A DNA stretch of 32,121 nt from Candidatus Iainarchaeum sp. (GCA_018651445.1 JABIDZ010000089.1:1-32121); one strand, 5' to 3'. Positions 5,693 to 26,281 are shown, counted from the first letter of the stretch. A program made the numbers and translations. The notes: a model not told the origin generated them from the sequence alone.

Positions 5693-6853
5693 ATGGACCA
5701 TATAGTTAGAAATGCAATTGCAAGAGCACAGGCTGTTCCAAAGCCAAGAACAATAAAGAAAACATCTAAAACTGCTAAAAGAGCAAGAACAACTAAGAGA
5801 AAAAGTGTAAGAAAAGTAACACACTCTGATGAAGATTTAGTAACAATGCTTGAAACTAATCAAGCAAAGATTGTTGTAGTTGGTTGTGGTGGTGGCGGTT
5901 GTAACACTATCGAACGAATGAACGAAGTAGGAATAAAAGGAGCGAATACTTTCGCTGTTAACACTGACGCACAAGACTTATTGACTACGCGTGCAGATAA
6001 AAAACTTTTAATTGGACAAAAATTAACTCGTGGTCTTGGTTCAGGATCAGATCCACAAATAGGTGAGAGTGCAGCAAAAGAAAGCGGTGAAGAACTAAAA
6101 GACTCTCTAAGCGCTTCTGACTTAGTGTTTATCACTTGTGGTTTAGGTGGAGGAACCGGAACTGGTTCAGCACCCGTTGTAGCAGAAATTGCTAAAAATG
6201 TAAAAGCTTTGACAGTTGCAGTAGTAACATTACCATTCACTGTTGAAGGAAGAAAAAGAATGGAAAACGCAATGTATGGTCTTGAAAGATTACAAGAATA
6301 TACCGACACTATAATTGTGATTCCAAACGACAAGATTTTGGAAATCGCTCCGGATCTACCAATTAACGCAGCTTTCAAAGTTGCAGACGAAGTTTTAACT
6401 AACGCAGTAAAAGGAATTACTGAAATGGTTACTAAACCAGGTTTGATTAATCTAGACTTTGCCGACTTAAGAACAATTTTGTCTCGAGGTGGAGCAGCAA
6501 TGATTGGTCTTGGAGAAAGTTCTCGAGGAGAATCTAGCGAATCACGCGCACTTGAATCAGTTGAAAATGCTTTGACTTCTCCATTACTTGATGTAGATAT
6601 TTCAAACGCTACAAGAGCATTAGTAAATGTTACTGGTGGAAGCGACATGACTTTAAGAGAAGCGGAAATGATTGTTGAAACAGTTTCAACAAAAATCCAT
6701 GGTGCAAGCCACATTATTTGGGGTGCGATGGTTGACGAAGGTTTACCTAAAAACCAAATCCAAGCAATGGTTGTAATCGCGGGCGGAAAATTTCCTTACC
6801 TTGAAGACACAAACTCTGCTGGAGAAATCGATTTAGGAATCGAGTTCACATAA
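5693..6853 (+). CDS. ftsZ: Cell division GTPase FtsZ (with ~55 aa basic N-terminal extension)
   Basis: GCGGGGCN, tubulin signature GLGGGTGTGSAPVVAE, NTDAQ. Strong SD ggagggtg precedes the ATG. Confidence 0.92.
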   Translation: MDHIVRNAIARAQAVPKPRTIKKTSKTAKRARTTKRKSVRKVTHSDEDLVTMLETNQAKIVVVGCGGGGCNTIERMNEVGIKGANTFAVNTDAQDLLTTRADKKLLIGQKLTRGLGSGSDPQIGESAAKESGEELKDSLSASDLVFITCGLGGGTGTGSAPVVAEIAKNVKALTVAVVTLPFTVEGRKRMENAMYGLERLQEYTDTIIVIPNDKILEIAPDLPINAAFKVADEVLTNAVKGITEMVTKPGLINLDFADLRTILSRGGAAMIGLGESSRGESSESRALESVENALTSPLLDVDISNATRALVNVTGGSDMTLREAEMIVETVSTKIHGASHIIWGAMVDEGLPKNQIQAMVVIAGGKFPYLEDTNSAGEIDLGIEFT

Positions 6854-6915: not shown

Positions 6916-9900
6916 TTATTTTCTTCTTCCAAAGATTATCAAAACTACTATTATGATAATTAATACGGCGATAATTGTTAATATTGTCTCGAAGTCTTGT
7001 TGTTTAACGGGCGGGTCCATTGCGTCCAATGCTAATTGATTTGCAGTTTCATAATTGTCTTGGTTTAACGCGAGTATTGCTTGTTCGTATTGAGTAATTA
7101 ATTCTGGTTCTTCAATTGTTTTTGTTTTTAATAATGCAATAGTTATTTGTGCAGTTGCTTTTTCTTCTTCACCGTTACTGATTGATTGTTGGGCTTGTTG
7201 TAAAAGAGTTATTGCTTCATCATCTTGAGAGTTATTTATTTTTTCAATTATTTCTGTTGTTGTAAAATCATATATTGTTTGATTATTAGTTGGCGGGGGG
7301 GTTGGATCGGGTTGATTGGGTAAGTTTTGTGGTAATCCATCTGGGTAATATACTTGGGCACATTCATTTAGTATACACTCTTGATTACCTGTACAATCAT
7401 CATTTGTTTGACAGCGAATGATATCCGGTATGTTATTCGTTTCTTTTGGCGTACATGAAATTGTTTCTTGCGCTTTATGTGTTACTCCTCCCTGACAATC
7501 CGTATTCGTTCGTGTCCAATGCTTTGTTTGTGTTCCTGTTTCAGGGCAAACCGCAGGTTCTATTCTTGATTCCCAATCATCTTGATTACAATACTCCGGT
7601 TGTTCTTGTTCAGCGTCACAAGTAATTATTTCGTTGGCATATATTATTCCATTATTACAATCATTAATTTTTGTCCATTGCTTTGTTTGAGTTCCATTAG
7701 TGCATGGAGTCATTTCAAATGACCAATGTGAATCAGTACATGTTGGAATTGTTTCACACGTCTTTGTTAAATCGATTGGTTGTCCTTGACAAGTTTCAAC
7801 AGTAGTTAATGTTGCTGTTCGTGTTTCTATTCCATTGGCACAGGTTCCATAATTTGAATATGTGTATTGACATTGTGGTGCATTATAATTACAAAGAATA
7901 ATTTCATCGGTTTTTGTTATTCCATTTTGACAATTTGTTACTTTAAAATACTTTTTTGTTTGTTCGCCAATTGAAGGGCAAGTTGCTGGTTCTAAATAAA
8001 AATCCCAGTGGTCGTCTGTACAAATTGGGGTGTGTGTACAACTTCGGATTAGCGCGTCTGGATTTCCTCCGTGGCATGTTGTTGGTGTTTTTGTTAATAT
8101 GGTTTTTGTTTGTGTTCCTGTTTGTGGGCATGTTGTTGGTGTCCAGTTGGTGTATGTGAAGTTGGTGCAGGTGGGTGCTTGGTAGTCACAAGATACGGAT
8201 TCGGTTGTTGGTTTTTGTATTCCGTTTTGGCAGTTGTTTGTTTTGTACCATGTTCGGATTAGTGTGTTTGTGTTTTGGCATGTTCCGTCTGTTGATGTCC
8301 AGTGGTCGTCTGTGCAAGTTGGTATGTATGTGCATGTGCGGGTTAATGATTCGGGGTTTCCGTTTTGGCATGTTGTGGGTGTGGTTGTTTGTATTGTGCG
8401 TGTTTGTGTTGTTGATTGTGGGCATGTTGTTGGTGTCCAGTCAGAGTAAGTAAAGTTAGTGCATGTTGGTGCTTGGTAGGCACAACTAATTTCTTCAGTT
8501 GTAGGGTGTTGTATCCCAGACACGCAGTTTGCGGTTTGTGTCCATGTACGTGTTTTTGTATTTGTTGGTTGACACGATTCATCGTTATATGTCCAGTTAT
8601 TGTCTGTGCAAATTGGTTGTGTGCCGGGATAGACATTTGGGTTAGCATCATCGATGTCACTGCCGTGCGTATTACAAGTTAAGGAACTCCATCGCCAGCC
8701 GGTTCCGATGTTTGAACTTGTTTCTTTTTGGTACCAGTTATGTCCGCCGTCCTCATATAACCATACGCCGTTTGCAACCCAGTTTCTCGGTATCTTCCAA
8801 TTCGCATTATACATCCAGGTATAAAATCTATTATTTGTTGGACACATCATTTGTATGTCTGGATAGGTGTCTTGATCATCATCGCACCCCTCATCTATTT
8901 CGCCATCATAATCATCATCAAAACTATTACAAATTTCCCCTGAATAAAATTGACTAAATGTCCAGTTTTCACTTTTATTAGTTCGTATTAATGCGGCTGC
9001 ACCGTATGCGTCCCAAACAGGAAAGTATTGCATAAAATCTCTCTGGGTTAAAATATAATATGCATTAGCTACGATTCTATCGTCATTATCCGTAATTGAT
9101 TTGATTTCTGAGAAAATATCTGGAAATGAACTCTGTGCAGGTATTGAACCATACCCAAATTCGTTAACGTAGATTTTCCCAGAAAAATTATTTTTTATAT
9201 CTTCAATAATTGATTGGGTATATGTTGAATACTTTGCTTTTGTTTCGGTTGTATTATCGGAATATGCATGCATACTAGCATAATTATATTTTGAATTAAC
9301 TGTCGATATTGAGCTAAGCCAATTATTAACGCCTAGTCCCCAAAGATTTGTTTCCTCGATTCCGGCTACGGCGCCCAAGATTGTTATTTTTCCGTCTTGT
9401 TTAAACTTATCTCCAAAATAGTCCAAAAATTCTATTGCTCTGTTTTTCCAGAATGTTCTTTCCGATTCATTATTCATCCAACAATCATTGCTAGGTAAAC
9501 AAGACGGGTTGCAACTAAGAATATGGTTAGGCATCAGGTTTGGTTCATTCAAAACTTCGATTATCTTGAAATCATTTTTATATCGGTCCATTAGATCTGA
9601 GTTTAATCCAAAAATTAGCCAATCGGGCGCATCTCCTCTCCAATTTAAGAAATTATTGGGATCGTCAGTTAGTTGCTTACAGTTTGTAAAATTATCGGCA
9701 TAATAATAATTGTCCCTGAATTCGAATAAGTTAAAGAAATTCTCTTTTTCAGTAGCACCCATGTCAGCAAATAATGTTTGTTGGAAAAGGTATGTTTGCA
9801 AATATGGTGTTGCAGGGATTTTTCTATCTGTCAAAGATTCATAAAATGCATCGACGATGTTAAGTGATTCTTGATATACACAATTGTATAAATCCCTGCT

Positions 9901-10479
9901 AAAACAAGTCTTTGGATTAAGACTTGGGAGCGTTCCAAATCGAATAAACTTTGCACCCGCTTTTTTTGCATTTAATGACACTTGTTCAGCATTTTGTAAA
10001 GATGCTGCACCAAAAGTAATTTCGTCATTAATCCCGAAAAGACCGTCTTTTACTTCGGCCTTTTTTGCGATACTTTCAATTTCGGCATATCTGCCAGAAG
10101 GAAAATGTGTAGATCTAGAATCTATACTGCTTGTTATTTCTAAACTACTGCAATCTGAACTATTAGTAAAAATTACTTTTGGGTAAATATTTCCTGCCTT
10201 GTGATAATAGAGGTCTATGTAGAAATTTGTTTCTTCCCCCGGGTGTATTTCACGGTATCTAATAAGTTTGTCTGAACCTTGTTCAATGAAAACTTCAGCG
10301 ATAATTGTTCCTGAAGAAAAAGCTCCGTTGCATGAAATATGCAAATCAAGGAAATTTTGATTATTTGGAACATATGTTGTATTATCCGTCCAAATCGTAT
10401 AACTTGATAGATTTGTGCTTTGCGAATATACTTGTCCCATTATGCAAATAAATAAGATTATTACAAATAACTTTTTCAT
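6916..10479 (-). CDS. Large C-terminally anchored surface protein: signal peptide, clan GH-A-like (GH5-style) domain, MopE-like acidic Cys motifs, eight 4-Cys modules, helical stalk, TM anchor
   Basis: Signal peptide MKKLFVIILFICIMGQVYS. IIEVLNEPN and IYVNEFGYG lie ~130 aa apart, the spacing of the acid/base and nucleophile Glu motifs of clan GH-A hydrolases. DDDYDGEIDEGCDDDQDTYPD and GSDIDDANPNVYPG are MopE-type motifs. Repeated C..W..C..T.T...C..G....C modules follow. C-terminal ILTIIAVLIIIIVVLIIFGRRK. The hydrolase assignment is tentative. Confidence 0.7.
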   Translation of the reverse strand: MKKLFVIILFICIMGQVYSQSTNLSSYTIWTDNTTYVPNNQNFLDLHISCNGAFSSGTIIAEVFIEQGSDKLIRYREIHPGEETNFYIDLYYHKAGNIYPKVIFTNSSDCSSLEITSSIDSRSTHFPSGRYAEIESIAKKAEVKDGLFGINDEITFGAASLQNAEQVSLNAKKAGAKFIRFGTLPSLNPKTCFSRDLYNCVYQESLNIVDAFYESLTDRKIPATPYLQTYLFQQTLFADMGATEKENFFNLFEFRDNYYYADNFTNCKQLTDDPNNFLNWRGDAPDWLIFGLNSDLMDRYKNDFKIIEVLNEPNLMPNHILSCNPSCLPSNDCWMNNESERTFWKNRAIEFLDYFGDKFKQDGKITILGAVAGIEETNLWGLGVNNWLSSISTVNSKYNYASMHAYSDNTTETKAKYSTYTQSIIEDIKNNFSGKIYVNEFGYGSIPAQSSFPDIFSEIKSITDNDDRIVANAYYILTQRDFMQYFPVWDAYGAAALIRTNKSENWTFSQFYSGEICNSFDDDYDGEIDEGCDDDQDTYPDIQMMCPTNNRFYTWMYNANWKIPRNWVANGVWLYEDGGHNWYQKETSSNIGTGWRWSSLTCNTHGSDIDDANPNVYPGTQPICTDNNWTYNDESCQPTNTKTRTWTQTANCVSGIQHPTTEEISCAYQAPTCTNFTYSDWTPTTCPQSTTQTRTIQTTTPTTCQNGNPESLTRTCTYIPTCTDDHWTSTDGTCQNTNTLIRTWYKTNNCQNGIQKPTTESVSCDYQAPTCTNFTYTNWTPTTCPQTGTQTKTILTKTPTTCHGGNPDALIRSCTHTPICTDDHWDFYLEPATCPSIGEQTKKYFKVTNCQNGITKTDEIILCNYNAPQCQYTYSNYGTCANGIETRTATLTTVETCQGQPIDLTKTCETIPTCTDSHWSFEMTPCTNGTQTKQWTKINDCNNGIIYANEIITCDAEQEQPEYCNQDDWESRIEPAVCPETGTQTKHWTRTNTDCQGGVTHKAQETISCTPKETNNIPDIIRCQTNDDCTGNQECILNECAQVYYPDGLPQNLPNQPDPTPPPTNNQTIYDFTTTEIIEKINNSQDDEAITLLQQAQQSISNGEEEKATAQITIALLKTKTIEEPELITQYEQAILALNQDNYETANQLALDAMDPPVKQQDFETILTIIAVLIIIIVVLIIFGRRK
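7446..8613 (-). repeat. In-frame array of eight ~45-50 aa four-cysteine modules (two alternating subtypes)
   Basis: Example modules: CTNFTYSDWTPTTCPQSTTQTRT..TTCQNGNPESLTRTC alternating with CTDDHWTSTDGTCQNTNTLIRTW..NNCQNGIQKPTTESVSC. A 24-nt perfect identity (8124..8147 and 8418..8441) sits exactly 294 nt, i.e. 98 codons, apart. Confidence 0.85.
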
Positions 10480-15017: not shown

Positions 15018-17477
15018 TTGGGTGTAGAAGTGTTTTCGAAAAAATTGTTAATTCTAGTTTTATTCTTACTTTGTTTCTCTATTTCGGTAACAGCGATTTC
15101 GCAAACAGAAAGCGTAAAGATTTTTGCAGTTACAGAAAACAATGAAGGGATGTCGGCAGACTTACATTTACATGTTATTCCTGGAAATGGAGAAGTAGCT
15201 TTTATAACTTCAAATTCCTTAGTTGGAAAAGACACTCAAACAACTGGAAACATTGCGATAAACGTAGCTGAAAAACAATCTACAATTAGTGCACAACAAA
15301 ACAACTTTGTTTTTGATATTATAGCTAACGCAATAGAAGTTGATGGGCCTAGCGCAGGAGCCGCGATGACGCTAGTTGCTTACTCTGTTTTAGCTGAGCG
15401 ACCATTACCCCAAGACATCGCAGTTACCGGAACAATTAATTCGGACGGATCAATAGGGGTTGTTTCGGGGATTTATGCAAAAGCAAAAGTTGCTTCTCAA
15501 ATAGGAATTAATTTATTTATGATCCCAAAAGGAGAAGCAAATCACGTAATAAAAGAGAATGGAAAAACAACATCAATTAATTTATTATCTTACGCTATGG
15601 AAGAATGGGGAATGAAAGTTGTTGAAGTAACTGCGATCGAAGACGTGTTAGAATATGCTTACTCGGATATCGATTCGATTGAGGTTGATACAACATCGTC
15701 TTTCATTGGATTTATTCCTAGTGCAATAAAATCGGATATGGGTCTTGAACCAATGCGAAAGATCTCACAAGGATATATTGATAGAGCCGAAGCACTTGTT
15801 GAAGAAACAAAAAAGGAACTCGAGGTTACTGAGCTAGAAGAAAGTTTGAGAAGTTCTTTTTATCCACAACTTGGCGTAGCAAAAAGAGATATTGAAATGT
15901 CTCAAATCTTTTTAGATCAAAATTATCTTTATTCTGCCGCAAACTCGTCATTTAATGCGCGAGTATCTGTTGGAACAATAAAAACAATTGTTAAGAATCC
16001 AACAATTCTTTCAAAAGACTCGGTTGTTTTAAATTCAGAAATTTCTTCTATGCGAAAAGAATTGGATTCTTTGAAAAACGATTTAGATTATATTCCATTA
16101 GATAAATTTGAATGGATTATTGGTGCACAACAAAGAGTTGCATACGCAGAAAATGCTTTGAATAAAATAAATGAAACAATAAGTGGTTCTTTTGAAGGTG
16201 AAGATGAAGAACAAATAGTTATGTTCGGAGTAATATTTGATTTAATTGCTGCTCAAGCGTGGATAGAAGTTTCAAGAGACCTACTTGAAGAAGCTAATTC
16301 GAGTAATGTGAAAAAAGTTCCTTTTTATGAAAAAGAATTTATTCTAAAGACTAAATCAAAGTTAATTTCAGTAAATATTTTTGCAAACGACATTAATATG
16401 CCTGAAGGAAAACTAGCAGAAGTTAATAGAAGATTAGAAGCTGCACGAATCTCATTTGACAATAATTTTTATTTTGCAACGCTATATGATATTGCAATCG
16501 CAGAATCACTTTCAAAAGCATTTGTTACAAAAGAGAAATCTGATTTTAGTGATTTGAATGGGTTATATGTTTTAGTTGATGAACAACAAACGGTAAGTCG
16601 AACAATTTCTTCGTTTTGGGGAAATCTTTTCCGCGATCACTCACAATTCTTTTTAGAAAATGCAAGGTACCAAAAAGAAATTAGTAGAACGTCTTCAGAA
16701 GAAGCTAATTTGAATAACGCGTATGACTGGGTAATTGTTGCACAAGGACTTGATGAAACAAAAGAAAATATTGGAGTTTACTTGGGTGAAAATACGTTTG
16801 ATGATTACGTTGGAATAAATGCGTCAATAGATATTAAATATACTAGAACAGACGTGTTTACTCCGGTTCTAATCCCTGCATTAATTGTGTTAGTACTTTT
16901 GTTAATTATGATAGTTGTATTTAGTGTTCGTCGTTCACCTGGAAAAGTTGATGCTGCGAGAGCAGAAAAATTAGATTCTATGCTTAACCGACTAGACAAA
17001 GCATTAGCAAAGGGGAAGGTGTCAGAGCCAGAGTATTTCTTTTTGAAGAAGAAGTATGATGATGAATTTAGTTATGTGAATAACATGCGGTCTAAACGGT
17101 CAAAGATTGCTTTGAATTTGGATGAATCAAGAGCTAAGTTAAGTGCGCTTGAACAAGGTGCAAAAGATCTAAAGAAACATTATCATTCTGGGTTGATTAT
17201 TCCAGAAGATTATGAAAGACATTTAAGCGAAGTTAATTCTGAGATAGCTGAGATAAAAGAAGATATTGACTCGTTTGAAGATGAACTGCGCGAGTCTAGA
17301 CGTGGAAAAAATAGGCGGACAATAAGTGCTGACAAAGTATTTTTACAAAAAGAAAAACAAAACCCTTTTAGCGTTAAAGGAACGGATACAAAAGAAAATG
17401 CGTTTAGCGTTAAAGGAACAAATGAAAAAACAAAGCCTCGTCGAAAGAAAATTCTTACTCGTAAAAAGAAAAAGTAA
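15018..17477 (+). CDS. Membrane-anchored Lon-type (peptidase S16) serine protease lacking an AAA+ module, with SHOCT-like cytoplasmic tail
   Basis: Signal/anchor KKLLILVLFLLCFSISV. Lon proteolytic-domain motifs VDGPSAGAAMTLVAY (Ser112) and GTINSDGSIGVVSGIYAKAKVA (Lys155). Second TM near aa 612-636 followed by RRSPGK. LAKGKVSEPEYFFLKKKY and SGLIIPEDYERHL resemble SHOCT motifs. An alternative GTG start exists at 15030. Confidence 0.75.
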   Translation: MGVEVFSKKLLILVLFLLCFSISVTAISQTESVKIFAVTENNEGMSADLHLHVIPGNGEVAFITSNSLVGKDTQTTGNIAINVAEKQSTISAQQNNFVFDIIANAIEVDGPSAGAAMTLVAYSVLAERPLPQDIAVTGTINSDGSIGVVSGIYAKAKVASQIGINLFMIPKGEANHVIKENGKTTSINLLSYAMEEWGMKVVEVTAIEDVLEYAYSDIDSIEVDTTSSFIGFIPSAIKSDMGLEPMRKISQGYIDRAEALVEETKKELEVTELEESLRSSFYPQLGVAKRDIEMSQIFLDQNYLYSAANSSFNARVSVGTIKTIVKNPTILSKDSVVLNSEISSMRKELDSLKNDLDYIPLDKFEWIIGAQQRVAYAENALNKINETISGSFEGEDEEQIVMFGVIFDLIAAQAWIEVSRDLLEEANSSNVKKVPFYEKEFILKTKSKLISVNIFANDINMPEGKLAEVNRRLEAARISFDNNFYFATLYDIAIAESLSKAFVTKEKSDFSDLNGLYVLVDEQQTVSRTISSFWGNLFRDHSQFFLENARYQKEISRTSSEEANLNNAYDWVIVAQGLDETKENIGVYLGENTFDDYVGINASIDIKYTRTDVFTPVLIPALIVLVLLLIMIVVFSVRRSPGKVDAARAEKLDSMLNRLDKALAKGKVSEPEYFFLKKKYDDEFSYVNNMRSKRSKIALNLDESRAKLSALEQGAKDLKKHYHSGLIIPEDYERHLSEVNSEIAEIKEDIDSFEDELRESRRGKNRRTISADKVFLQKEKQNPFSVKGTDTKENAFSVKGTNEKTKPRRKKILTRKKKK

Positions 17478-17492
17478 TCTTTTTTTTATTTT

Positions 17493-20462
17493 TTAACTAG
17501 CAATTCGTGTGCCTTTTAGTTTCAAACCGATTACTGAACTATTGTCTTTGTTTAATGCTACTCCAACAATTTGTCTAGCTTTCTTTGTTATTGTGTCGTT
17601 GTGAGTAATTGCAATAAACTGACTTTTCTCAGCAATCTTGTCTATTAAGCTACCCATTTTCATAGAGTTTTCTTTGTCAAGAGCAGCATCTGCTTCATCA
17701 AAAGCATAGAATGGTGCTGGAGAATAAAGTTGGATAGCAAACATGAATGCTAATGCAGTTAATGTTTTTTCTCCACCACTCATTGAATCAATATTTTGTA
17801 GTTTTCCACCTTTTGGTTTTGCATCAATCAACAAACCACTTTCTAATGGGCTGTCCGGATTAGTTAGGTCTAGTAATGCTTCTCCGTTAAAGAATTTTGC
17901 AAACATGTCTTTGAAGTTATGATTAACTTCGTTGAAACAATCCATAAAAACATTAGTTCGTTTAACATCAATCTTGTCGATCATATCAAGGACAGATAAG
18001 CGTTCTTCTTCTAACGTGCTTGCTTTTGTTTGTATCTCATCAACTTCTTTTTTTAGTTCGGTAAAATTGTCCATTGCTTTTAGATTAACTGCGCCGATTT
18101 CTTCAAGGCGTTTACTAACAACAACAAGTCGTTGTTTTAGTTCGTCTACGGTTTTTTCGCCAATTTTTGTAGCTCCTTCAAATTCGCTTTGTTCTTCTAT
18201 AAGATCGGCTTCTCTTACTTCTAGTTTGCTCTTCTCAATATTGAATTCGTTTACTCGTGAATCCATTCGTTTTGCTTTTCCACTTTCAGTATAAATCTCT
18301 TTCTCTACTTTTTCGATTCTTGCGTCTAGTTTTTCTTTTTCTGCGAGGAGTTTAGAATTCTCTTTTTTAGCACCTTCAAGTTCTTTTTCTTGTGTTGATA
18401 CTTCTTCTTCAATTTGTGCTAAAATGGGTCTTTTTTCTTCAATTTCTCTCAAATAAGTGTCAATTTCTTCGCCAAGCGCAGTGTTTTCTTTTGTCAATGC
18501 GTCTTCTGTGCTCTTCATTTTGCTAAGAGCCAATCTATTCTCGTTTAGTTGCGCTTCCATTACAGACTTGTTATGTATAAGCTCGTCTCGTTTTGCATTC
18601 ACCATTGAGAGCTCTTCGAAAACATTTTCTTTTCGCAGTGCGTTTAAACTTTCTTTTATTGTTTCTCGCTTCTCAACAAGAGTTTTTACTTTCGCATCGA
18701 GAGTGTTTTTCTTATTTAATTGTGCTTCAAATTGCTTTTCATCTAGTTCAAGCTTAACTGATTTTACTTTTGATTCTACTCGTTCTAATCGCTCGTTGAG
18801 AACGTTTTTTCCTTCTATTTCAACCATTAAACGAGCAACTAATCTAAGATTGTCTTTTATCACGCCAAGATCTGCTTTAATCGTTGCTTCTTTTTCTTTG
18901 CTTGCGACAAGTTCTTTTTCTGTTGTAACGATAAGTGCTTCTTTTTCGCCTAAGATTTTCTTCTTTTTTTCTGCTTCTAAATTAGAATCACAAACAGGGC
19001 ATTTCGAAATCTCTTTTGTAAGTTCGCTAACGGCTTTTCTTTCTTGTTTGATAACTGCGTTATAATTACTTGATATAGAATTATTTTTTTCTAGTTCATC
19101 TTCTTTTTGTGCTAGTTCTCCTTCTAGTTTTTCGAATCCGCCAAGACTTGTGATCTCATTGTTTTTTGAATCAATTTCAACAAGACGTGCATTAAGTTCT
19201 TTTTCTTCTTCTTCCAGTTCAAGGAGTTTTTTTGTGTTAAAACTTTTTTGTTTTTCCCATTGTTTAATAAAAACTTCTAAATCAAAGTTTTCTTTTCTAA
19301 TTAAATCAATTGCTTTGTTCTTTTCATCAAGCTCCGTTTCTACAACAATAATTTCTTTGTTCTTTGTCTTTGCAACGTCGTCTAAACCACTTTTTTTAGT
19401 AGTAATTTCTTTTAACTGGTCATCTAAACCATTTTTTTCTGTGTTTAATTCTTTTATTTTTTCAGCGATATCATTGATTGCTTGTTTTGATTCGCTCGCA
19501 TTCTTGTTATTATCTTCAATTCGCTTTTTGTTTCGTTTGATGCTAGCTTGTTTTATATCAATTCTTTCTTTTTCAATATTTAATTGTGATTTCTTTTCTT
19601 CAAACTCTTTTCCAACCGTATTGTAGATTTCTGCCGAACCCTTTATTGCTTTACTACTTAATGCATTAGCATCTTGCTTAGCTTTTGAAACTTCTTCATT
19701 TAATTCTTTGATACTTGCTTGTATTTCTTCTTTATTTTTTTCTAGTTCTTTTAATTCTTTATCAATTTCAACAGTTCTTTTTTCGATTTGGTATAATTCT
19801 TTTGAAATAATTGTGGCTTTAATGTCTTTTTTTTCTGTTGATAATCCGCTGAATTCTTGTGCAGCATTCATTTCTTTTTCTAGTTCTTCAAGAAAAGTAT
19901 TTCTTTCGTTTAGGATAATTGTTGCTTCTTTTATTCGAGAATCAACTTTATTTAATTCTTTTACTGCCTCGTCTTTCTTTTGATCAAATTCACTTAAACC
20001 AGCTATGCTATCGATTATCTGTCTTCTCTCTGTCCCTGACATATTAACTACTTTTGTAATATCTCCTTGTGTAACGATGTTGTGCCCCGTAATATCGATT
20101 CCAAATTCTACTAGTAGTGAGTTAACTTCATTTAGAGTCGTTCGTTTTCCATCTAAACGATAAATACTTTTTCCTTGTTTGTCAATCATTCGACTAACTT
20201 CGTAAGTCTTTCCGCCATTTTTTATTGTCAAATCAACTTTAGCATAATTTTCTTTTGCGTTGTTGTATACCAGATCAGTTAGTTTTCCTGCTCTTAGAGT
20301 TTTTAGCGAAGTTATTCCTAATACGAATAACAATGCGTCAAGAACATTACTTTTTCCACTACCATTTGATCCAACAATTGCTGTGAAACCATTGCTTAAT
20401 GGGATCTCAGCTTTCTTAAAAGACTTGAAATTTTTTAATGTCAATTTAACCAGTTTAGTCAT
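17493..20462 (-). CDS. SMC-family ATPase with central CxxC hook-like motif and no recognisable hinge domain
   Basis: Walker A GSNGSGKSNVLDALLFVLG. SMC-style LRAGKLTDLVY and QGDITKVVNMSGTERRQIIDSIAGLSEF. Signature MSGGEKTLTALAFMFAIQ. Walker B/D-loop PAPFYAFDEADAALD. Long K/E-rich coiled-coil-like middle with KCPVCDS at Cys488/Cys491 of 989 (nt 18990..19001). Confidence 0.85.
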   Translation of the reverse strand: MTKLVKLTLKNFKSFKKAEIPLSNGFTAIVGSNGSGKSNVLDALLFVLGITSLKTLRAGKLTDLVYNNAKENYAKVDLTIKNGGKTYEVSRMIDKQGKSIYRLDGKRTTLNEVNSLLVEFGIDITGHNIVTQGDITKVVNMSGTERRQIIDSIAGLSEFDQKKDEAVKELNKVDSRIKEATIILNERNTFLEELEKEMNAAQEFSGLSTEKKDIKATIISKELYQIEKRTVEIDKELKELEKNKEEIQASIKELNEEVSKAKQDANALSSKAIKGSAEIYNTVGKEFEEKKSQLNIEKERIDIKQASIKRNKKRIEDNNKNASESKQAINDIAEKIKELNTEKNGLDDQLKEITTKKSGLDDVAKTKNKEIIVVETELDEKNKAIDLIRKENFDLEVFIKQWEKQKSFNTKKLLELEEEEKELNARLVEIDSKNNEITSLGGFEKLEGELAQKEDELEKNNSISSNYNAVIKQERKAVSELTKEISKCPVCDSNLEAEKKKKILGEKEALIVTTEKELVASKEKEATIKADLGVIKDNLRLVARLMVEIEGKNVLNERLERVESKVKSVKLELDEKQFEAQLNKKNTLDAKVKTLVEKRETIKESLNALRKENVFEELSMVNAKRDELIHNKSVMEAQLNENRLALSKMKSTEDALTKENTALGEEIDTYLREIEEKRPILAQIEEEVSTQEKELEGAKKENSKLLAEKEKLDARIEKVEKEIYTESGKAKRMDSRVNEFNIEKSKLEVREADLIEEQSEFEGATKIGEKTVDELKQRLVVVSKRLEEIGAVNLKAMDNFTELKKEVDEIQTKASTLEEERLSVLDMIDKIDVKRTNVFMDCFNEVNHNFKDMFAKFFNGEALLDLTNPDSPLESGLLIDAKPKGGKLQNIDSMSGGEKTLTALAFMFAIQLYSPAPFYAFDEADAALDKENSMKMGSLIDKIAEKSQFIAITHNDTITKKARQIVGVALNKDNSSVIGLKLKGTRIAS

Positions 20463-21768: not shown

Positions 21769-22554
21769 ATGACTTTTAATAATTCAATTCTATTGATACT
21801 AAAACAATACAAGAGTATCGAATTTAACGAATTATTATCTAAGATTTCTTCGCGTTATACAAATTCTTCTTCTGCTTACTCTGCTTTGAGTAGAGCGCTA
21901 AAAAACTTGGATTCGCTAGGACAAGTAAAAAGAAAAGATAGCCGAATTTTTATTACAGATAAGGGTTTAGCATCGATCCATGTTGAAATGAAAGAAAAAC
22001 TCGTGTTAAAGTTAAACGAGGCTTTCAAAAAGCCACTTGTTAATTTAGAAGAAATTGTTCAATTATTAATCGTGTTATCTGAGAGAGCATCTGAAAGTAA
22101 TGATTTATTACAAGGTGCAAAAGAATATGCGGAGTTTACTATCGAAGATATTAGTGAATTACAAGACGCGATTACTGAACAACAAGAGTTTATTGAAAAG
22201 ATGCGTTCGCTTCTAGGTGTACAAGAAGAAAGATTTCGAGAACTAGATTTCAATGATTGTCTTGCAATAGTTTTTGATAAAAAGTTTGTAGAAAAAGCTA
22301 GTTCATTTGTAAACGAAAAGATAATTGTTAAAACAAATGACAAAGACTTGTTAGAAAAGATCCCTGAAGTTTGGCAAAAAGATGCAAGTATTATTGTTGA
22401 CAAAGAGTTTTCAAAAAACATATTTGATATTTTACTTGACAACTCGCTAAGCGAGTTTACTATTTATTTAGAAAATATAAAATGTGTAGCTTCAAAAGGA
22501 ATGATTACTTGTTATTCTTCACACAAACTATTAAATGAATTTAATAAAAAGTAA
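21769..22554 (+). CDS. Hypothetical protein with N-terminal winged-helix-like region and central coiled coil
   Basis: N-terminal ILLILKQYKSIEFNELLSKI...SALSRALKNLDSLGQVKRKD looks wHTH-like. The remainder is unassigned. It is convergent with the HerA-like gene. Confidence 0.5.
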   Translation: MTFNNSILLILKQYKSIEFNELLSKISSRYTNSSSAYSALSRALKNLDSLGQVKRKDSRIFITDKGLASIHVEMKEKLVLKLNEAFKKPLVNLEEIVQLLIVLSERASESNDLLQGAKEYAEFTIEDISELQDAITEQQEFIEKMRSLLGVQEERFRELDFNDCLAIVFDKKFVEKASSFVNEKIIVKTNDKDLLEKIPEVWQKDASIIVDKEFSKNIFDILLDNSLSEFTIYLENIKCVASKGMITCYSSHKLLNEFNKK

Positions 22555-22564
22555 TGATCGAAAG

Positions 22565-25500
22565 TTACTTTATTTGTCTTCCGTTGATCGCATCGATTCG
22601 AACAACACGTTCTTCACCAGTTTTCTTCTTTAATACGCCTTCCCAAACGGGTAAGAACAAATGTGTAACTTCTTTTACGCTAATATTTTTCCAAACTTTC
22701 TTTATCAAATCAACCGCTTCTTTTTCTTCTATGTTTGGACGTAATAGCGGAACACTTTCTACTTCGATGATTGGTCTTTTTCCGATACTAGGCATTATTG
22801 CGTGTAATGGGCTAGGTGGTAAATCAATTTTTTCTTTTAGATTGTAAACCATTCGATCTTTTTGTTTTTCTACTTTAACCATGTCTTTTTCAGCTAGTTT
22901 TTCAAGAACTCTTTTTACATTTCCTGGTTCCATACCCATGTTCTCTGACAAACTATGAATATCGTGTTTGCTTTCAAGTAGTTTTACAGCAAGTATTTCA
23001 GCTTCGTTTAAATGTAGTAATTGTGGTAACCCAACACTTTCTACTAAGCTACCTTTGTTGTCGTGTATGAATTCTCCGGTTTGAGAATTGATATATGCTT
23101 CTCCAACTTGGAACGCATCTTTTTGAGAAAAATAATTGTATCTGATTTTGTATAACGTTGCGTACTTCATTCCTAGTCTGTCAACAATTTCTTCTTCACC
23201 AAATAATCCTAGTGCTTTCTTTAATCTTAATTTAGCTAATAACAATCTAGCTTGTGCTTCTACAACAGTTGGTTGCAACGCAGTTAACTCTACACTTGCT
23301 TCGTATTCTTCGTCGTCATTATCTTCATCTTCGTCGTCATCTGTTTCTTCTTCATCATCTTCGCTATCGTTTTCGTCGTCATCTTCTTCATCGCGGTCTT
23401 CAGAATCTTCTTCACTTTCTTCGTTTTCCTCGCCATCTTCGCTTTCAGCATCCTCTTCTTCGTTTTCAGCAGTTTCTTCAGCTTCCATTTCTGCTAGCAC
23501 GCCTTTGGCATATAATCGTTCTTCATCAAATTCAACGCCTTGTTCTTCGAGTAATTCTTGTACGGTTTCAAAAGCAATTTTCTTTTTGTAAGTACTTTCA
23601 AGTGTTTCAATTATTTGTTCGAGTGTTTCAATCTTAATACTAGGATCTTTTTCTAATTTTTTTAGAGTAATTCTCATTGCAAGTAATTCTACTTGTTCTT
23701 GACCCATATCGTGTTTAACTTCGATTGTTTCTGCGTCACGACCTTCGTGTTGACTCATTCTTGGTCGAATATTCATTACAAATGCTCTTGCAGTAGTTTC
23801 TTGTCGATCGCCTGTTAGCGCTGTTCCTACTGGAAGTGTTTTAATAAAATTTGGTTTCTTGTATGGTGCAGGAATGATTGTCGGAGTTCTTTTTTGAATT
23901 GCTTTTACGTCGTCATCAAAAACTAGTTTATGTGCCATTATGACATCTAATTGGCTTAGCACTTTTGAATCAATTGCACTTGGTTGTTGTGTAGCGAATA
24001 CTAGACTTAATCCTGGACGTCTACCTTGTTTTACATACTCAACAATCGCTTTGCTCGCAGGAGTCTTAGAATTTCCACCAGGAATTAATGTGTGTGCTTC
24101 ATCAATAAACAACCATGTTGGAGGAACATTTATTTCTACTAAATCTTCTACTCCATTATCTTCAAATTTTCCTGCAGCTTCACGTCTTGTACTAAGTTTT
24201 CTTGCAGAAAGTAGTCTTCTTGAAATTATTCCTATTACTAATGCACTTACGGTGTCATCTAAAAAACTTGTATCAAGAATAGTCATTTGGCCTGCTCGCG
24301 AAATCATGCTTAATGGAGTTCCTGCTTCGTCAAAAATTCCCCAGCTCTTTGCTGCATCAAATCTACTTGTAATTGCTCTAATTGACTCTGGTTTGTAACC
24401 TTTTTCTCGATCGTTTAACTCTGAATCAAATTCTAGACAATTAACTAGATCATCAATTGAATAAGTTTGTTCTTTTCCACGTACTTGTTTTGGATTATCT
24501 CCTTTTGTAGTGTATCCTTTTTTTATTTTTTCAAGAACTTTGTCAAGTAACAAACCGGTTGGAGAAAATCGATCCATTCCAAATGTTAGCGCCCAGTCTT
24601 CTGCTGTTAACAAAGATGGTTGTATTGAGAAAGTTGAGTTGTAAGTGCTTTTTGGAACGCTGTCTTTCATTCCTACTGGGATGAGTACTTTTAGGTTGTC
24701 AAGACCTTGTGGCATTATTTCCCATTCAGCTAATAACTCTAATTCTTTTTCATCTCGATTAGGATGTTTCATACTCCAGAATACTCCAATCGGATCAACA
24801 ACAACAATTCCTACGTTTTTGTTTTTTAGAGCTAGTTCTTCTGCTAGTACTCCTAGAACATATGATTTTCCGCTTCCTCTGGCTCCGCAAACGAATACAA
24901 CGTGGGGGTTAAGTCCATCCAAGTATATTGGTGTTTTGCTTAGTTCTTCTTCTCCAACGCGTCCTATGTGTAACCCGCCTTGGTCACCATATTTTTTTAG
25001 AACACTTTTCTTTCTTCCGATATATGCGTTCCCGGTTACTTCGTTCATTAAGAAATTTATTTTTGGTTTGATTTTAGTTTTAACGTTAGCATTCTCTGCT
25101 TTTAGCGCGTCAAGCTCTGCTTTTTCACCAATTACTTCAGCTTCTTTTTCAAAACCCCATTCAGCGCTAGCCCCTTCTTCTTTTGTTCCGTGTTCTTTTA
25201 ACAAGTAATCAGCTAAATCGTCTTTTTTAGTAGCTTTGTTTGCTTTATTTTTGATTACATTTTTTATAATATTTTTTTCTAGCGGAGTAGCCTTTGTTTT
25301 CTTTTTTGGTTTAATTATTTCTTCTTCGTCAATTTCTACTTTTAAATTTAATTTTCCAGTTACTTCTTTTACTTTTGCAGCAGATCCGGCAGTGATTCCT
25401 GCTTCAATGCTTTTTGCAAGACCCTCTTTTACTATTTGGTTGTAATTAGACTTTGATTTCTTGGGGTTAATTTTCTTTTCTAATTCTCTCGCTTTCTTTT

Positions 25501-25864
25501 CTAAGTCTTTTGCTTGGGCCTTATCTAAAAATAATTCTGGTTCTTCTTCAGATTCATCCTCATCAGAATCTTCCTCATCTTCTGCTTCTTCCTCGTCGTC
25601 TTCCTCTTCGTCGTCATCTGTTTCTTCTTCGTCTTCTTCGCTATCCTCGTCCTCTTCTTCGCTTTCGTCGTCTTCCTCTTCTTCCGCGTCTTCTTCAGTT
25701 TTTCGTTTTTTCTTTTCTTTTTCACTTAGTTCTTCAGCTTTTGCTTTTAGTTTTTGTTTAGAAGCTTTCTTTTCGTCGTCTTCGCCAAACACGTCGTCGA
25801 AGATGTCGTCACTAGTATCAATACTCTTCTCTACACGATCATTGTCATAAACTGAATCTGCCAT
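22565..25864 (-). CDS. HerA/FtsK-superfamily (DUF87-type) P-loop ATPase with two poly-acidic inserts and C-terminal wHTH-like region
   Basis: Walker A VFVCGARGSGKSYVLG. Walker B WLFIDEAHTLIPG. HerA-style YVKQGRRPGLSLVFATQQPSAIDSKVLSQLDVIMAHKL. D/E runs at about nt 25537..25696 and 23299..23490. LNEAEILAVKLLESKHDIHSLSENMGMEPGNVKRVLEKLAEKDMVKVE looks MarR/wHTH-like. The ATG at 25864 is preferred over the upstream in-frame GTG at 25873. Confidence 0.8.
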   Translation of the reverse strand: MADSVYDNDRVEKSIDTSDDIFDDVFGEDDEKKASKQKLKAKAEELSEKEKKKRKTEEDAEEEEDDESEEEDEDSEEDEEETDDDEEEDDEEEAEDEEDSDEDESEEEPELFLDKAQAKDLEKKARELEKKINPKKSKSNYNQIVKEGLAKSIEAGITAGSAAKVKEVTGKLNLKVEIDEEEIIKPKKKTKATPLEKNIIKNVIKNKANKATKKDDLADYLLKEHGTKEEGASAEWGFEKEAEVIGEKAELDALKAENANVKTKIKPKINFLMNEVTGNAYIGRKKSVLKKYGDQGGLHIGRVGEEELSKTPIYLDGLNPHVVFVCGARGSGKSYVLGVLAEELALKNKNVGIVVVDPIGVFWSMKHPNRDEKELELLAEWEIMPQGLDNLKVLIPVGMKDSVPKSTYNSTFSIQPSLLTAEDWALTFGMDRFSPTGLLLDKVLEKIKKGYTTKGDNPKQVRGKEQTYSIDDLVNCLEFDSELNDREKGYKPESIRAITSRFDAAKSWGIFDEAGTPLSMISRAGQMTILDTSFLDDTVSALVIGIISRRLLSARKLSTRREAAGKFEDNGVEDLVEINVPPTWLFIDEAHTLIPGGNSKTPASKAIVEYVKQGRRPGLSLVFATQQPSAIDSKVLSQLDVIMAHKLVFDDDVKAIQKRTPTIIPAPYKKPNFIKTLPVGTALTGDRQETTARAFVMNIRPRMSQHEGRDAETIEVKHDMGQEQVELLAMRITLKKLEKDPSIKIETLEQIIETLESTYKKKIAFETVQELLEEQGVEFDEERLYAKGVLAEMEAEETAENEEEDAESEDGEENEESEEDSEDRDEEDDDENDSEDDEEETDDDEDEDNDDEEYEASVELTALQPTVVEAQARLLLAKLRLKKALGLFGEEEIVDRLGMKYATLYKIRYNYFSQKDAFQVGEAYINSQTGEFIHDNKGSLVESVGLPQLLHLNEAEILAVKLLESKHDIHSLSENMGMEPGNVKRVLEKLAEKDMVKVEKQKDRMVYNLKEKIDLPPSPLHAIMPSIGKRPIIEVESVPLLRPNIEEKEAVDLIKKVWKNISVKEVTHLFLPVWEGVLKKKTGEERVVRIDAINGRQIK

Positions 25865-26281
25865 ATTACTCACTTATTATTTCTCTAATTAAGAGGGAGT
25901 TTTTGCTTAAAAAACCTTTTCCTCTGCCTTTTCTTTTAAAAAAGAAAAGGTAAGTTGTCAAAAGAAAACTTTGGGGTTATGTTTGCTTTTTTCCATTACC
26001 TTTTTAAAAAGAATGAGAACAAATATTATCGTGTTGGGAGTGAACTTTACAAAGTTTTTACTTTGTTGAGTTCGGCAAAACAAATGTTTTGCAAGAGGAG
26101 ACAAATCACACCGTTTATCGGTTCCCTGGTTTGTCTTCTTTAATTTTATTTCTGTGCTTTCTTTTGATGTGACAAACGGTTGTTTGTAACACCCGTAAAA
26201 CTTTAGTTTTGTTAGGGAAAAGAAAGTAAAGTTCTACAAAGAAAAACGTGTTATCCTTTAGATAACACTAGTTTATTAGTT

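Follow-up and report, generated by a model that had tools for sequence, protein, structure and literature searches.

A phylum-wide HerA-like ATPase family of Iainarchaeota with acidic disordered regions and a C-terminal module of a winged helix between PepSY-like repeats

What kind of motor is encoded by the giant ATPase gene of Candidatus Iainarchaeum sp., and what do its unusual appendages do? The gene occupies positions 22565..25873 (minus strand) of a 32,121-nucleotide (nt) stretch of DNA (GCA_018651445.1 JABIDZ010000089.1:1-32121), which was analysed at its full length and is called the window below. A first-pass annotation, made from the sequence, had described the product as a HerA/FtsK-family P-loop ATPase with two long acidic inserts and a C-terminal MarR-like winged helix-turn-helix (wHTH), and had not recognised this combination as a described HerA architecture. 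The open reading frame (ORF) and all the motifs quoted for it are indeed present at that place. The protein, here called the giant, is very probably one member of a conserved HerA-like family that shares this architecture and has yet to be characterised. On balance we incline toward viewing it as the Iainarchaeota form of a barrel-less, soluble HerA-like family that would work as a hexameric double-stranded DNA (dsDNA) translocase for chromosome maintenance, with its acidic linkers as electrostatic regulators.

The protein belongs to the FtsK-HerA superfamily of P-loop pumping ATPases. The motifs GARGSGKS, WLFIDEAH and QQPSAIDSKVLSQLDVIMAHKL correspond to residues 330-337, 587-594 and 629-650, respectively. 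The Pfam DUF87/HerA central domain matches residues 302-554 with 56.8 bits (cut-off 23.2), while HerA_C (PF05872) matches residues 584-699 with 25.4 bits (cut-off 22; model positions 257-373 of 502) and is found in all of 44 diverse orthologues, with overall identities of 43-72%. The core also carries an arginine in GRRPG, a TQQPS sensor and a C-terminal RPRMSQHEGR brace motif. In the 44 orthologues the catalytic set is invariant, comprising K336/S337 (Walker A), D591/E592 (Walker B), R618 of GRRPG and Q629/Q630 of TQQPS, which bears out the superfamily assigned at first sight. Residues 200-800, modelled by AlphaFold2 with the same orthologues, reach a mean predicted local distance difference test (pLDDT) score of 81.5, with residues 216-254 and 260-264 disordered (pLDDT below 50). 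All 50 of the best Foldseek matches of the core model in the Protein Data Bank (PDB) are HerA-type ring translocases (E down to 1e-19); they include the HerA-NurA complex of T. kodakarensis (9x1m), the S. solfataricus (4d2i) and D. radiodurans (7wrw) structures, anti-phage HerA and HerA-like (TdpA) rings. The parts of the gene and protein are as follows, from the N-terminus to the C-terminus.

22565..25873, minus strand: whole ORF, 1102 residues from a GTG codon; probable ATG start at 25864 (1099 residues)
25769..25816, minus strand: short N-terminal motif D.FDDVFGED.E, residues 20-35, taken from the family consensus and set in disordered surroundings
25541-25699, minus strand: acidic tract 1, residues 59-111 (53 residues, 85% aspartate or glutamate, D/E), of a strength reached in a minority of orthologues
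25523..25540, minus strand: PE(L/V)F(L/I)D motif closing tract 1, residues 112-117, from the alignment of close orthologues
25049..25522, minus strand: Lys/Glu-rich spacer, part helical and part disordered, residues 118-275, with a conserved P..EK..IK.VIKNKA patch at about 197-212
23702..25048, minus strand: HerA-like RecA-fold core without a HAS barrel, residues 276-724, delimited by Pfam, invariant columns, AlphaFold2 with Foldseek, and paralogue alignment
24863-24886, minus strand: Walker A, within the core
24092-24115, minus strand: Walker B, within the core
23504..23701, minus strand: helix-strand-helix-helix-strand domain, residues 725-790, from the secondary structure of the model, with a conserved TLN..YK motif
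23306-23476, minus strand: acidic tract 2, residues 800-856 (57 residues, 75% D/E), inside the linker of residues 791-865
23024..23278, minus strand: PepSY-like repeat 1, residues 866-950, a helix and long antiparallel strands, ending in ..AYINSQTGEFIH
22829..23023, minus strand: wHTH of ArsR/SmtB-MarR-TrmB type, residues 951-1015, from Foldseek and profile matches
22568..22828, minus strand: DLPP.P.H linker and PepSY-like repeat 2, residues 1016-1102, ending in ..RVVRIDAINGRQIK

How far does the likeness to HerA go? Sequence conservation reaches only about 54 residues ahead of the P-loop, and what precedes this stretch is disordered or of low complexity. A full N-terminal HAS barrel therefore appears to be absent, and at most a remnant of three short strands may persist. 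No membrane segment is present in the protein, where the maximum Kyte-Doolittle value (1.5) falls inside the core. The genome to which the window belongs (0.88 Mb, 79% complete) encodes three DUF87 proteins, namely the giant, a standard HerA of 503 residues and a barrel-less paralogue of 432 residues. End-to-end alignment (27% identity, E 3e-54) relates the core of the giant to the 432-residue paralogue; with the true HerA, which has about 165 residues before its P-loop, it aligns only weakly (18% identity). This HerA lies immediately downstream of a NurA gene (a 364-residue frame) on another contig (C65; L001/L004), and the ORF that follows it is not obviously Mre11. The genome's only NurA is the one adjoining this HerA; none was found in the window or in 85 related loci. 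The search for nurA/mre11 partners proposed in the first-pass annotation thus speaks against a HerA-NurA role for the giant, which we take to be a paralogue with another job, since the genome has its NurA and a canonical HerA at another locus. The short paralogue (contig C35; L003 1333-2631), which lies downstream of an Arg/Gly-rich pentapeptide-repeat protein, is probably widespread as well, because at least two matches are seen in most of the phylum's genomes.

The giant is conserved almost throughout its phylum. In a survey of Iainarchaeota/Diapherotrites with one genome per species, 198/201 genomes contain a match (187 at E below 1e-100), as do all 58/58 high-quality genomes (at least 90% complete). 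More than 550 homologues of 900-1225 residues, with 63-100% core identity, were recovered by word-indexed search from many independent assemblies, their named sources being Diapherotrites, Iainarchaeum or 'archaeon'. A profile of 44 members spans residues 4-1102 of this protein in a collinear full-length match. A pattern scan of 185,579 species genomes gave 211 loci, the 80 retained of which come from Iainarchaeum, ainarchaeum, Forterrea, unnamed archaeal metagenome-assembled genomes and a few bins otherwise labelled. Six orthologues (P0060-P0064 and P0115; loci L042 and L043, for example) carry a LAGLIDADG intein of about 450 residues exactly inside the P-loop (GARGSGK|C...HN|SY), a position typical of indispensable nucleotide-handling enzymes. 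The gene is a phylum-wide core gene and very probably not a defence gene.

Beyond the phylum, a profile search of 1.84 billion representative proteins returned 2439 matches (333 at E up to 1e-30). More than 1100 relatives at E up to 1e-10 bear the C-terminal module. By their source names, proteins that combine core and module occur in Thermoplasmatota, Theionarchaea, Methanofastidiosa and Hadarchaeales, so the gene is no odd one-off. These relatives take three forms, of 650-750 residues (almost free of linker), 800-860 residues and 1200-1650 residues, the last with DUF835, SAP domains and a coiled coil in the linker. Several Thermoplasmatota proteins (P0155, P0164, P0175, P0183 and others) unite core, DUF835, SAP, coiled coil and PepSY-wHTH-PepSY in one chain, and one member has a long (EKAER)n repeat in its linker. 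The linker is a swappable cassette, either polyacid or DUF835 with SAP. In a tree of the core, the module-bearing proteins form one clade (97 in the Shimodaira-Hasegawa-like approximate likelihood ratio test, SH-aLRT), outside which fall the stand-alone ATPases of 430-500 residues; the true HerA of the same genome has a very long branch. Those of Iainarchaeota form a monophyletic group (SH-aLRT 99) nested among short-linker forms of 700-830 residues, which implies that the long acidic N-terminal extension and linker are derived in the phylum. No paper describing the family was found in a literature search, and public records name its members 'DUF87 domain-containing' or 'ATP-binding protein' only, in agreement with the initial view that this is not a described HerA architecture.

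The C-terminal module (residues 866-1102) is modelled by AlphaFold2 with a pLDDT of 94.7 and a predicted template modelling score (pTM) of 0.88. It consists of a helix and four long strands, the wHTH, the conserved DLPP.P.H connector and a second helix with a hairpin. Foldseek superimposes the wHTH (pLDDT above 90) on CzrA, ZitR and SmtB with a root-mean-square deviation of about 2 Å across 67 residues, and a profile search against PDB sequences adds MecI, AdcR and an Lrs14-like protein. Pfam TrmB matches it with 22.5 bits, below the 25.6 threshold, and 20/44 orthologues match at E up to 0.05. By its modelled fold this is a wHTH of ArsR/MarR type, which would bind DNA. A PDB profile match to 6pd1 (nucleotidyltransferase/aminotransferase, E 2e-4) was judged spurious. 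The two flanking repeats match one another (HHalign probability 90%, E 1.6e-6), and both terminate in an I(D/N)..TG..I motif typical of PepSY domains, with which their topology of a helix and an antiparallel sheet also agrees. Pfam PepSY (PF03413) itself gives sub-threshold matches in 9/44 orthologues (best E 2.6e-4) and in the distant relative P0140, and none in this protein at E up to 0.1. Against PDB and viral predicted (BFVD) structures, Foldseek matched only the winged helix, with no match for the beta-rich halves or for the module as a whole. The tail ...VWEG...RVVRIDAINGRQI is conserved throughout the family. Of the module as first described, the MarR-like wHTH and the conserved tail stand; its extent does not, as the wHTH is flanked by the two PepSY-like repeats. 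Residues 725-790, behind the core, can tentatively be viewed as a second winged-helix-like unit, a proposal that only the topology of the model fits, the HHalign comparison with the C-terminal wHTH being insignificant (probability 18%).

Two disordered regions, one on each side of the core, carry the acidic inserts that had drawn attention to the gene, and both inserts are present at the strength listed above. Charge and tract counts were made over 106 full-length orthologues. Median net charge is -33 in the N-terminal region (interquartile range -46 to -23) and -12 in the linker, with the folded parts near neutral (core +1, PepSY-1 +3, wHTH +2, tail +1). This protein is extreme, with -40 in the N-terminal region, -47 in the linker and -89 overall. 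Windows of 30 residues with at least 50% D/E occur in 96/106 N-terminal regions and 28/106 linkers; at 80% D/E or more, these counts fall to 11/106 and 8/106. The N-terminal extension that this phylum has added is 90-410 residues long, net-acidic and disordered. What is conserved is that both disordered regions are negatively charged; the near-pure runs are labile expansions. The first-pass annotation had considered that a lack of tracts in orthologues would reduce them to strain-specific expansions. This is half right, given that most orthologues are without near-pure runs yet keep net-negative disordered regions at both sites.

How do such runs arise? Strong tracts (at least 70% D/E) changed at least 18 times at the N-terminus and at least 10 times in the linker on the orthologue tree, and tract length varies even at 98% core identity (P0001 vs P0003). 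The two sites are linked: 13/14 strongly acidic linkers are accompanied by a strongly acidic N-terminal tract, and in phylogenetically independent pairs both traits shift together 6:0 (sign test, p ~0.03). The tracts are composed of imperfect codon repeats and framed by the short conserved motifs D.FDDVFGED.E, PELFLD and EYE.SVELTAL. A 47-nt segment is common to both (23322-23368 and 25599-25645), and its identity of 44/47 exceeds all 400 codon-order shuffles (maximum 42). This suggests intragenic duplication or conversion between the tracts, which offers a mechanism for their joint appearance. Within its genome the feature is specific to this gene, because no other frame of at least 100 residues has a 30-residue window with 70% D/E or more and the proteome is slightly basic overall.

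The gene itself is a single unbroken frame. A GTG start gives 1102 residues; an ATG three codons downstream, at 25864, is the probable start and gives a 1099-residue product identical (100%) to the public gene call P0002. An A/T-rich TATA-like stretch lies about 40 nt upstream, within a non-coding gap of 408 nt (25874-26281) that has A/T-rich palindromes, lacks any credible small ORF and matches no Rfam family below E 0.07. The gene appears to be monocistronic. The window is of archaeal origin, has a low G+C content (about 0.33) and contains, near the ATPase gene, the genes for ribosomal proteins L44e, L1 and L10/P0, for FtsZ and for an SMC protein. Converging on the ATPase gene across a 10-nt gap is orf261 (21769-22554, plus strand; 261 residues), which has an N-terminal wHTH-like region and a coiled coil and matched no family. 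It follows the ATPase gene in 29-38 related loci and is convergent in 27/29 clustered ones. In the window's own family the genes keep the order ATPase, orf261, L44e, membrane protein, SMC. More generally, the immediate downstream neighbour is always convergent and belongs, by sublineage, to one of three unrelated families (orf261, a family of about 200 residues and one of about 560). A conserved operon partner was rejected on this ground, the downstream convergent gene changing family between sublineages. A protein of about 95 residues was likewise dismissed as a partner; it is a same-strand neighbour in only 3/85 loci, and the copy in this genome lies on another contig (C105). We read the conserved gene order as inherited synteny and not as an operon.

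Further along the window, the SMC-family ATPase (17493-20462, minus strand, 989 residues; TIGR02169, 562 bits) has a central CPVC motif that matches the Rad50 zinc hook (Pfam E 4.6e-4) in place of a hinge, and shares synteny with the ATPase gene across 22 related loci. An 819-residue protein (15018-17477, plus strand) matches only the C-terminal proteolytic domain of Lon protease, at residues 55-178, its other ~640 residues being unmatched. L10/P0 (12684-13844, plus strand, 386 residues) has an unusually long C-terminal extension past its Pfam domains. Adjoining FtsZ (5693-6853) is a 1187-residue ORF (6916-10479, minus strand) with no Pfam match, a local G+C of 0.43 and a strong AT skew. Outside the phylum the setting differs. 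The ATPase gene of the short-linker relative P0140 (L101 2900-7732) is overlapped at its start by a Hel308-type helicase gene and at its end by a 191-residue ORF, with Metallophos, L44e, Cdc6/Orc1, SepF and ParA-like genes beside it, and a Theionarchaea relative adjoins a PRC-barrel gene and CDC48.

What might such a machine do? The core would assemble as a hexameric ring that pumps dsDNA, as HerA and FtsK do, and the flexibly tethered C-terminal module would bind DNA or a DNA-bound partner and so load or orient the ring; in the relatives, SAP would tether the ring to DNA likewise. The motor could then serve in segregation, in clearing or unlinking of DNA, or in fork or break processing. We hold a dsDNA translocase in chromosome maintenance to be about evenly balanced against all other roles. 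The polyanionic regions might vie with DNA for basic patches on the ring and the winged helix, which would gate or auto-inhibit the motor; alternatively or in addition, they might take up basic chromatin proteins that the motor displaces. Nucleic-acid mimicry or the binding of basic proteins, raised in the first-pass annotation for tracts of this length, are thus candidate roles. Recruitment of the motor to a partner would fall to the N-terminal peptide, D.FDDVFGED.E being a candidate docking peptide. The near-pure poly-D/E runs of this gene would be recent expansions of the linkers by slippage or recombination. That the acidic regions have a specific regulatory or chaperone role we rate as somewhat less likely than not. 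A bolder proposal, which we consider improbable, is that the family fills the place of FtsK as chromosome pump in several archaeal lineages that divide by FtsZ, and that in Iainarchaeota the roughly 500 negative charges per hexamer form a built-in chaperone or DNA mimic, with histone and Alba stripped from DNA and held as the motor moves, making a prokaryotic ATP-dependent chromatin remodeller recruited through D.FDDVFGED. Histone (contig C62) and Alba (C103) are both encoded in the genome, and FtsK is not found there above the Pfam cut-off, with the assembly 79% complete.

Several points weigh against a DNA pump with acidic regulators. Translocation, hexamer formation and the roles of the acidic regions are read from homology and composition. 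The folded candidates for facing DNA are near neutral in the 106 orthologues, not basic, and winged helices and PepSY domains can also serve as protein-protein modules. DUF835, which we take to be KaiC-like, could indicate signalling in the relatives over DNA pumping. The 85 related loci yielded no conserved operon partner, and the synteny with SMC and L44e may reflect only shared ancestry. Finally, most orthologues are without near-pure acidic runs and the relatives outside Iainarchaeota without acidic linkers, which implies that any specific function of the tracts is not essential to the motor.

The rival that deserves most attention leaves the motor unaffected and denies the tracts a specific role. 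They would be neutral, slippage-prone GAA/GAT/GAC expansions in linkers that need only length, flexibility and solubility, and we rate this a real possibility, if short of an even one. It accounts well for the rarity of near-pure runs (11/106 and 8/106), their many gains and losses on the tree, the differences in length between P0001 and P0003, the short or otherwise built linkers outside the phylum and the imperfect codon repeats. It accounts less well for the net negative charge kept at both sites in nearly all of the 106 orthologues beside neutral folded domains, for the 6:0 co-variation on independent branches and for the conserved motifs that frame the tracts; moreover, with no other such tract in the genome there is no genome-wide drive. 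It is also conceivable, though unlikely, that the protein is not a DNA pump at all but an ATP-driven regulator or remodeller, whose ring acts on protein or as a nucleotide switch and whose winged helix binds an operator or docks a protein. The wHTH is closest to small-molecule-responsive repressors (ArsR/SmtB, MarR, MecI), PepSY-type repeats are regulatory or inhibitory modules, DUF835 is presumably associated with signalling, and some sources name relatives 'predicted transcriptional regulator'. Yet the closest structures are all DNA translocases, SAP in the relatives is a motif for tethering to DNA or chromatin, neither a cognate target gene nor a divergently arranged operator has been conserved, and the P-loop intein and phylum-wide conservation suit information-processing enzymes.

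Could the giant instead be the HerA of HerA-NurA-Mre11-Rad50 end resection, with the neighbouring hook-bearing SMC-like protein as its Rad50? Its DUF87/HerA domain and the CPVC motif of an SMC-family ATPase only 2 kb off invite the thought, which is nevertheless very hard to sustain when NurA and the standard HerA are paired on C65, with 18% identity between that HerA and the giant, and when the NCBIfam HerA models, with cut-offs of at least 800, reach 25-36 bits. The neighbour is scored much higher by the SMC model (562 bits) than by the Rad50 models, and lies downstream on the same strand with plus-strand orf261 and L44e in between, and the window contains neither NurA nor Mre11. For these reasons both a canonical HerA and a pairing with the adjacent SMC as Rad50 were rejected. 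An equally slight chance attaches to a defence or mobile-element ATPase of the SIR2-HerA/DUF4297-HerA anti-phage type, like mad8 of MADS, or for conjugation or DNA import. PADLOC mad8 does match across the whole core (73 bits), the anti-phage HerA models give 31-66 bits, and NCBIfam anti-phage HerA and CedD match weakly. Set against these are a nearly phylum-universal gene in stable synteny with ribosomal and chromosome genes, no adjacent effector (SIR2, DUF4297, nuclease, methylase), no membrane segments, NCBIfam scores far under their cut-offs, and only weak sub-threshold PADLOC or Pfam matches in the intervening ORFs. A defence system was accordingly discarded, the PADLOC and NCBIfam matches reflecting core homology only. 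Least probable of all, to the point of being negligible, is an artefact of assembly or gene fusion as the source of the long ORF, a risk that had been raised at the outset. Mis-assembly can happen at low-complexity repeats; the same order of parts, however, recurs in hundreds of independent assemblies, among them single-contig megabase genomes, and is shared by the more than 550 full-length homologues.

We know of no recognised FtsK equivalent in Archaea, nor of roles for their many HerA-like paralogues. Here is a motor ATPase conserved like ribosomal genes in one DPANN phylum, with relatives in at least four other archaeal lineages and a confidently modelled, undescribed C-terminal tail predicted to be of DNA-binding type. 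It offers a defined target for how small-genome archaea move or repair their chromosome, together with a natural series on the tuning of DNA motors by polyanionic disordered regions. In databases, such genes should not be named HerA, double-strand break repair helicase or defence.

Compared with known systems, the giant resembles HerA of the HerA-NurA complex (PDB 4d2i, 9x1m, 7wrw) in fold, Walker A and B, arginine finger, TQxPS sensor, C-terminal brace and DUF87 domain. It differs from HerA in having about 54 instead of about 165 residues before the P-loop, no NurA partner and 18% identity, and in adding a helical domain, acidic linkers and PepSY-wHTH-PepSY while a canonical HerA coexists; it scores 25.3 bits against the 800 required by NCBIfam HerA NF040937. 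The anti-phage HerA proteins (SIR2-HerA, DUF4297-HerA) and MADS mad8 have a homologous ATPase core, whereas the giant has no effector partner, a core-genome distribution and other accessory domains, and reaches 33-36 bits where the anti-phage HerA models ask for 800-850. DUF853/YjgR-type NTPases (PF05872) and stand-alone DUF87 ATPases of 430-500 residues share the barrel-less core and, unlike the giant, are without N-terminal extension, linker and C-terminal module. The Thermoplasmatota 'DUF835 domain-containing' proteins of 1200-1650 residues and the 700-860-residue forms of Theionarchaea, Methanofastidiosa and Hadarchaeales belong to its core clade and carry its module. What sets these relatives apart is a linker that is short or made of DUF835, SAP and coiled coil, and the absence of an acidic N-terminal extension.

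A different kind of likeness is found in FtsK/SpoIIIE and the soluble SftA of Bacillus, which place a ring DNA motor between a low-complexity linker or recruiting N-terminal part and a C-terminal DNA-reading winged helix (FtsK gamma). The giant is alike in the logic of this layout and in superfamily. Unlike FtsK/SpoIIIE, it has no membrane anchor and no FtsK-gamma, for which Pfam gives no match, and its winged helix lies between PepSY-like repeats; FtsK_SpoIIIE (PF01580) reaches 16.9 bits against a cut-off of 24, in the P-loop region only. Long poly-D/E regions tethered to nucleic-acid-binding domains are also known from the HMGB1 tail, the SSB tip and histone chaperones, to which the giant is related by analogy only, with no homology. 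Although the protein qualifies as neither, its closest characterised relatives are the HerA rings and its closest functional analogy is with FtsK or SftA.

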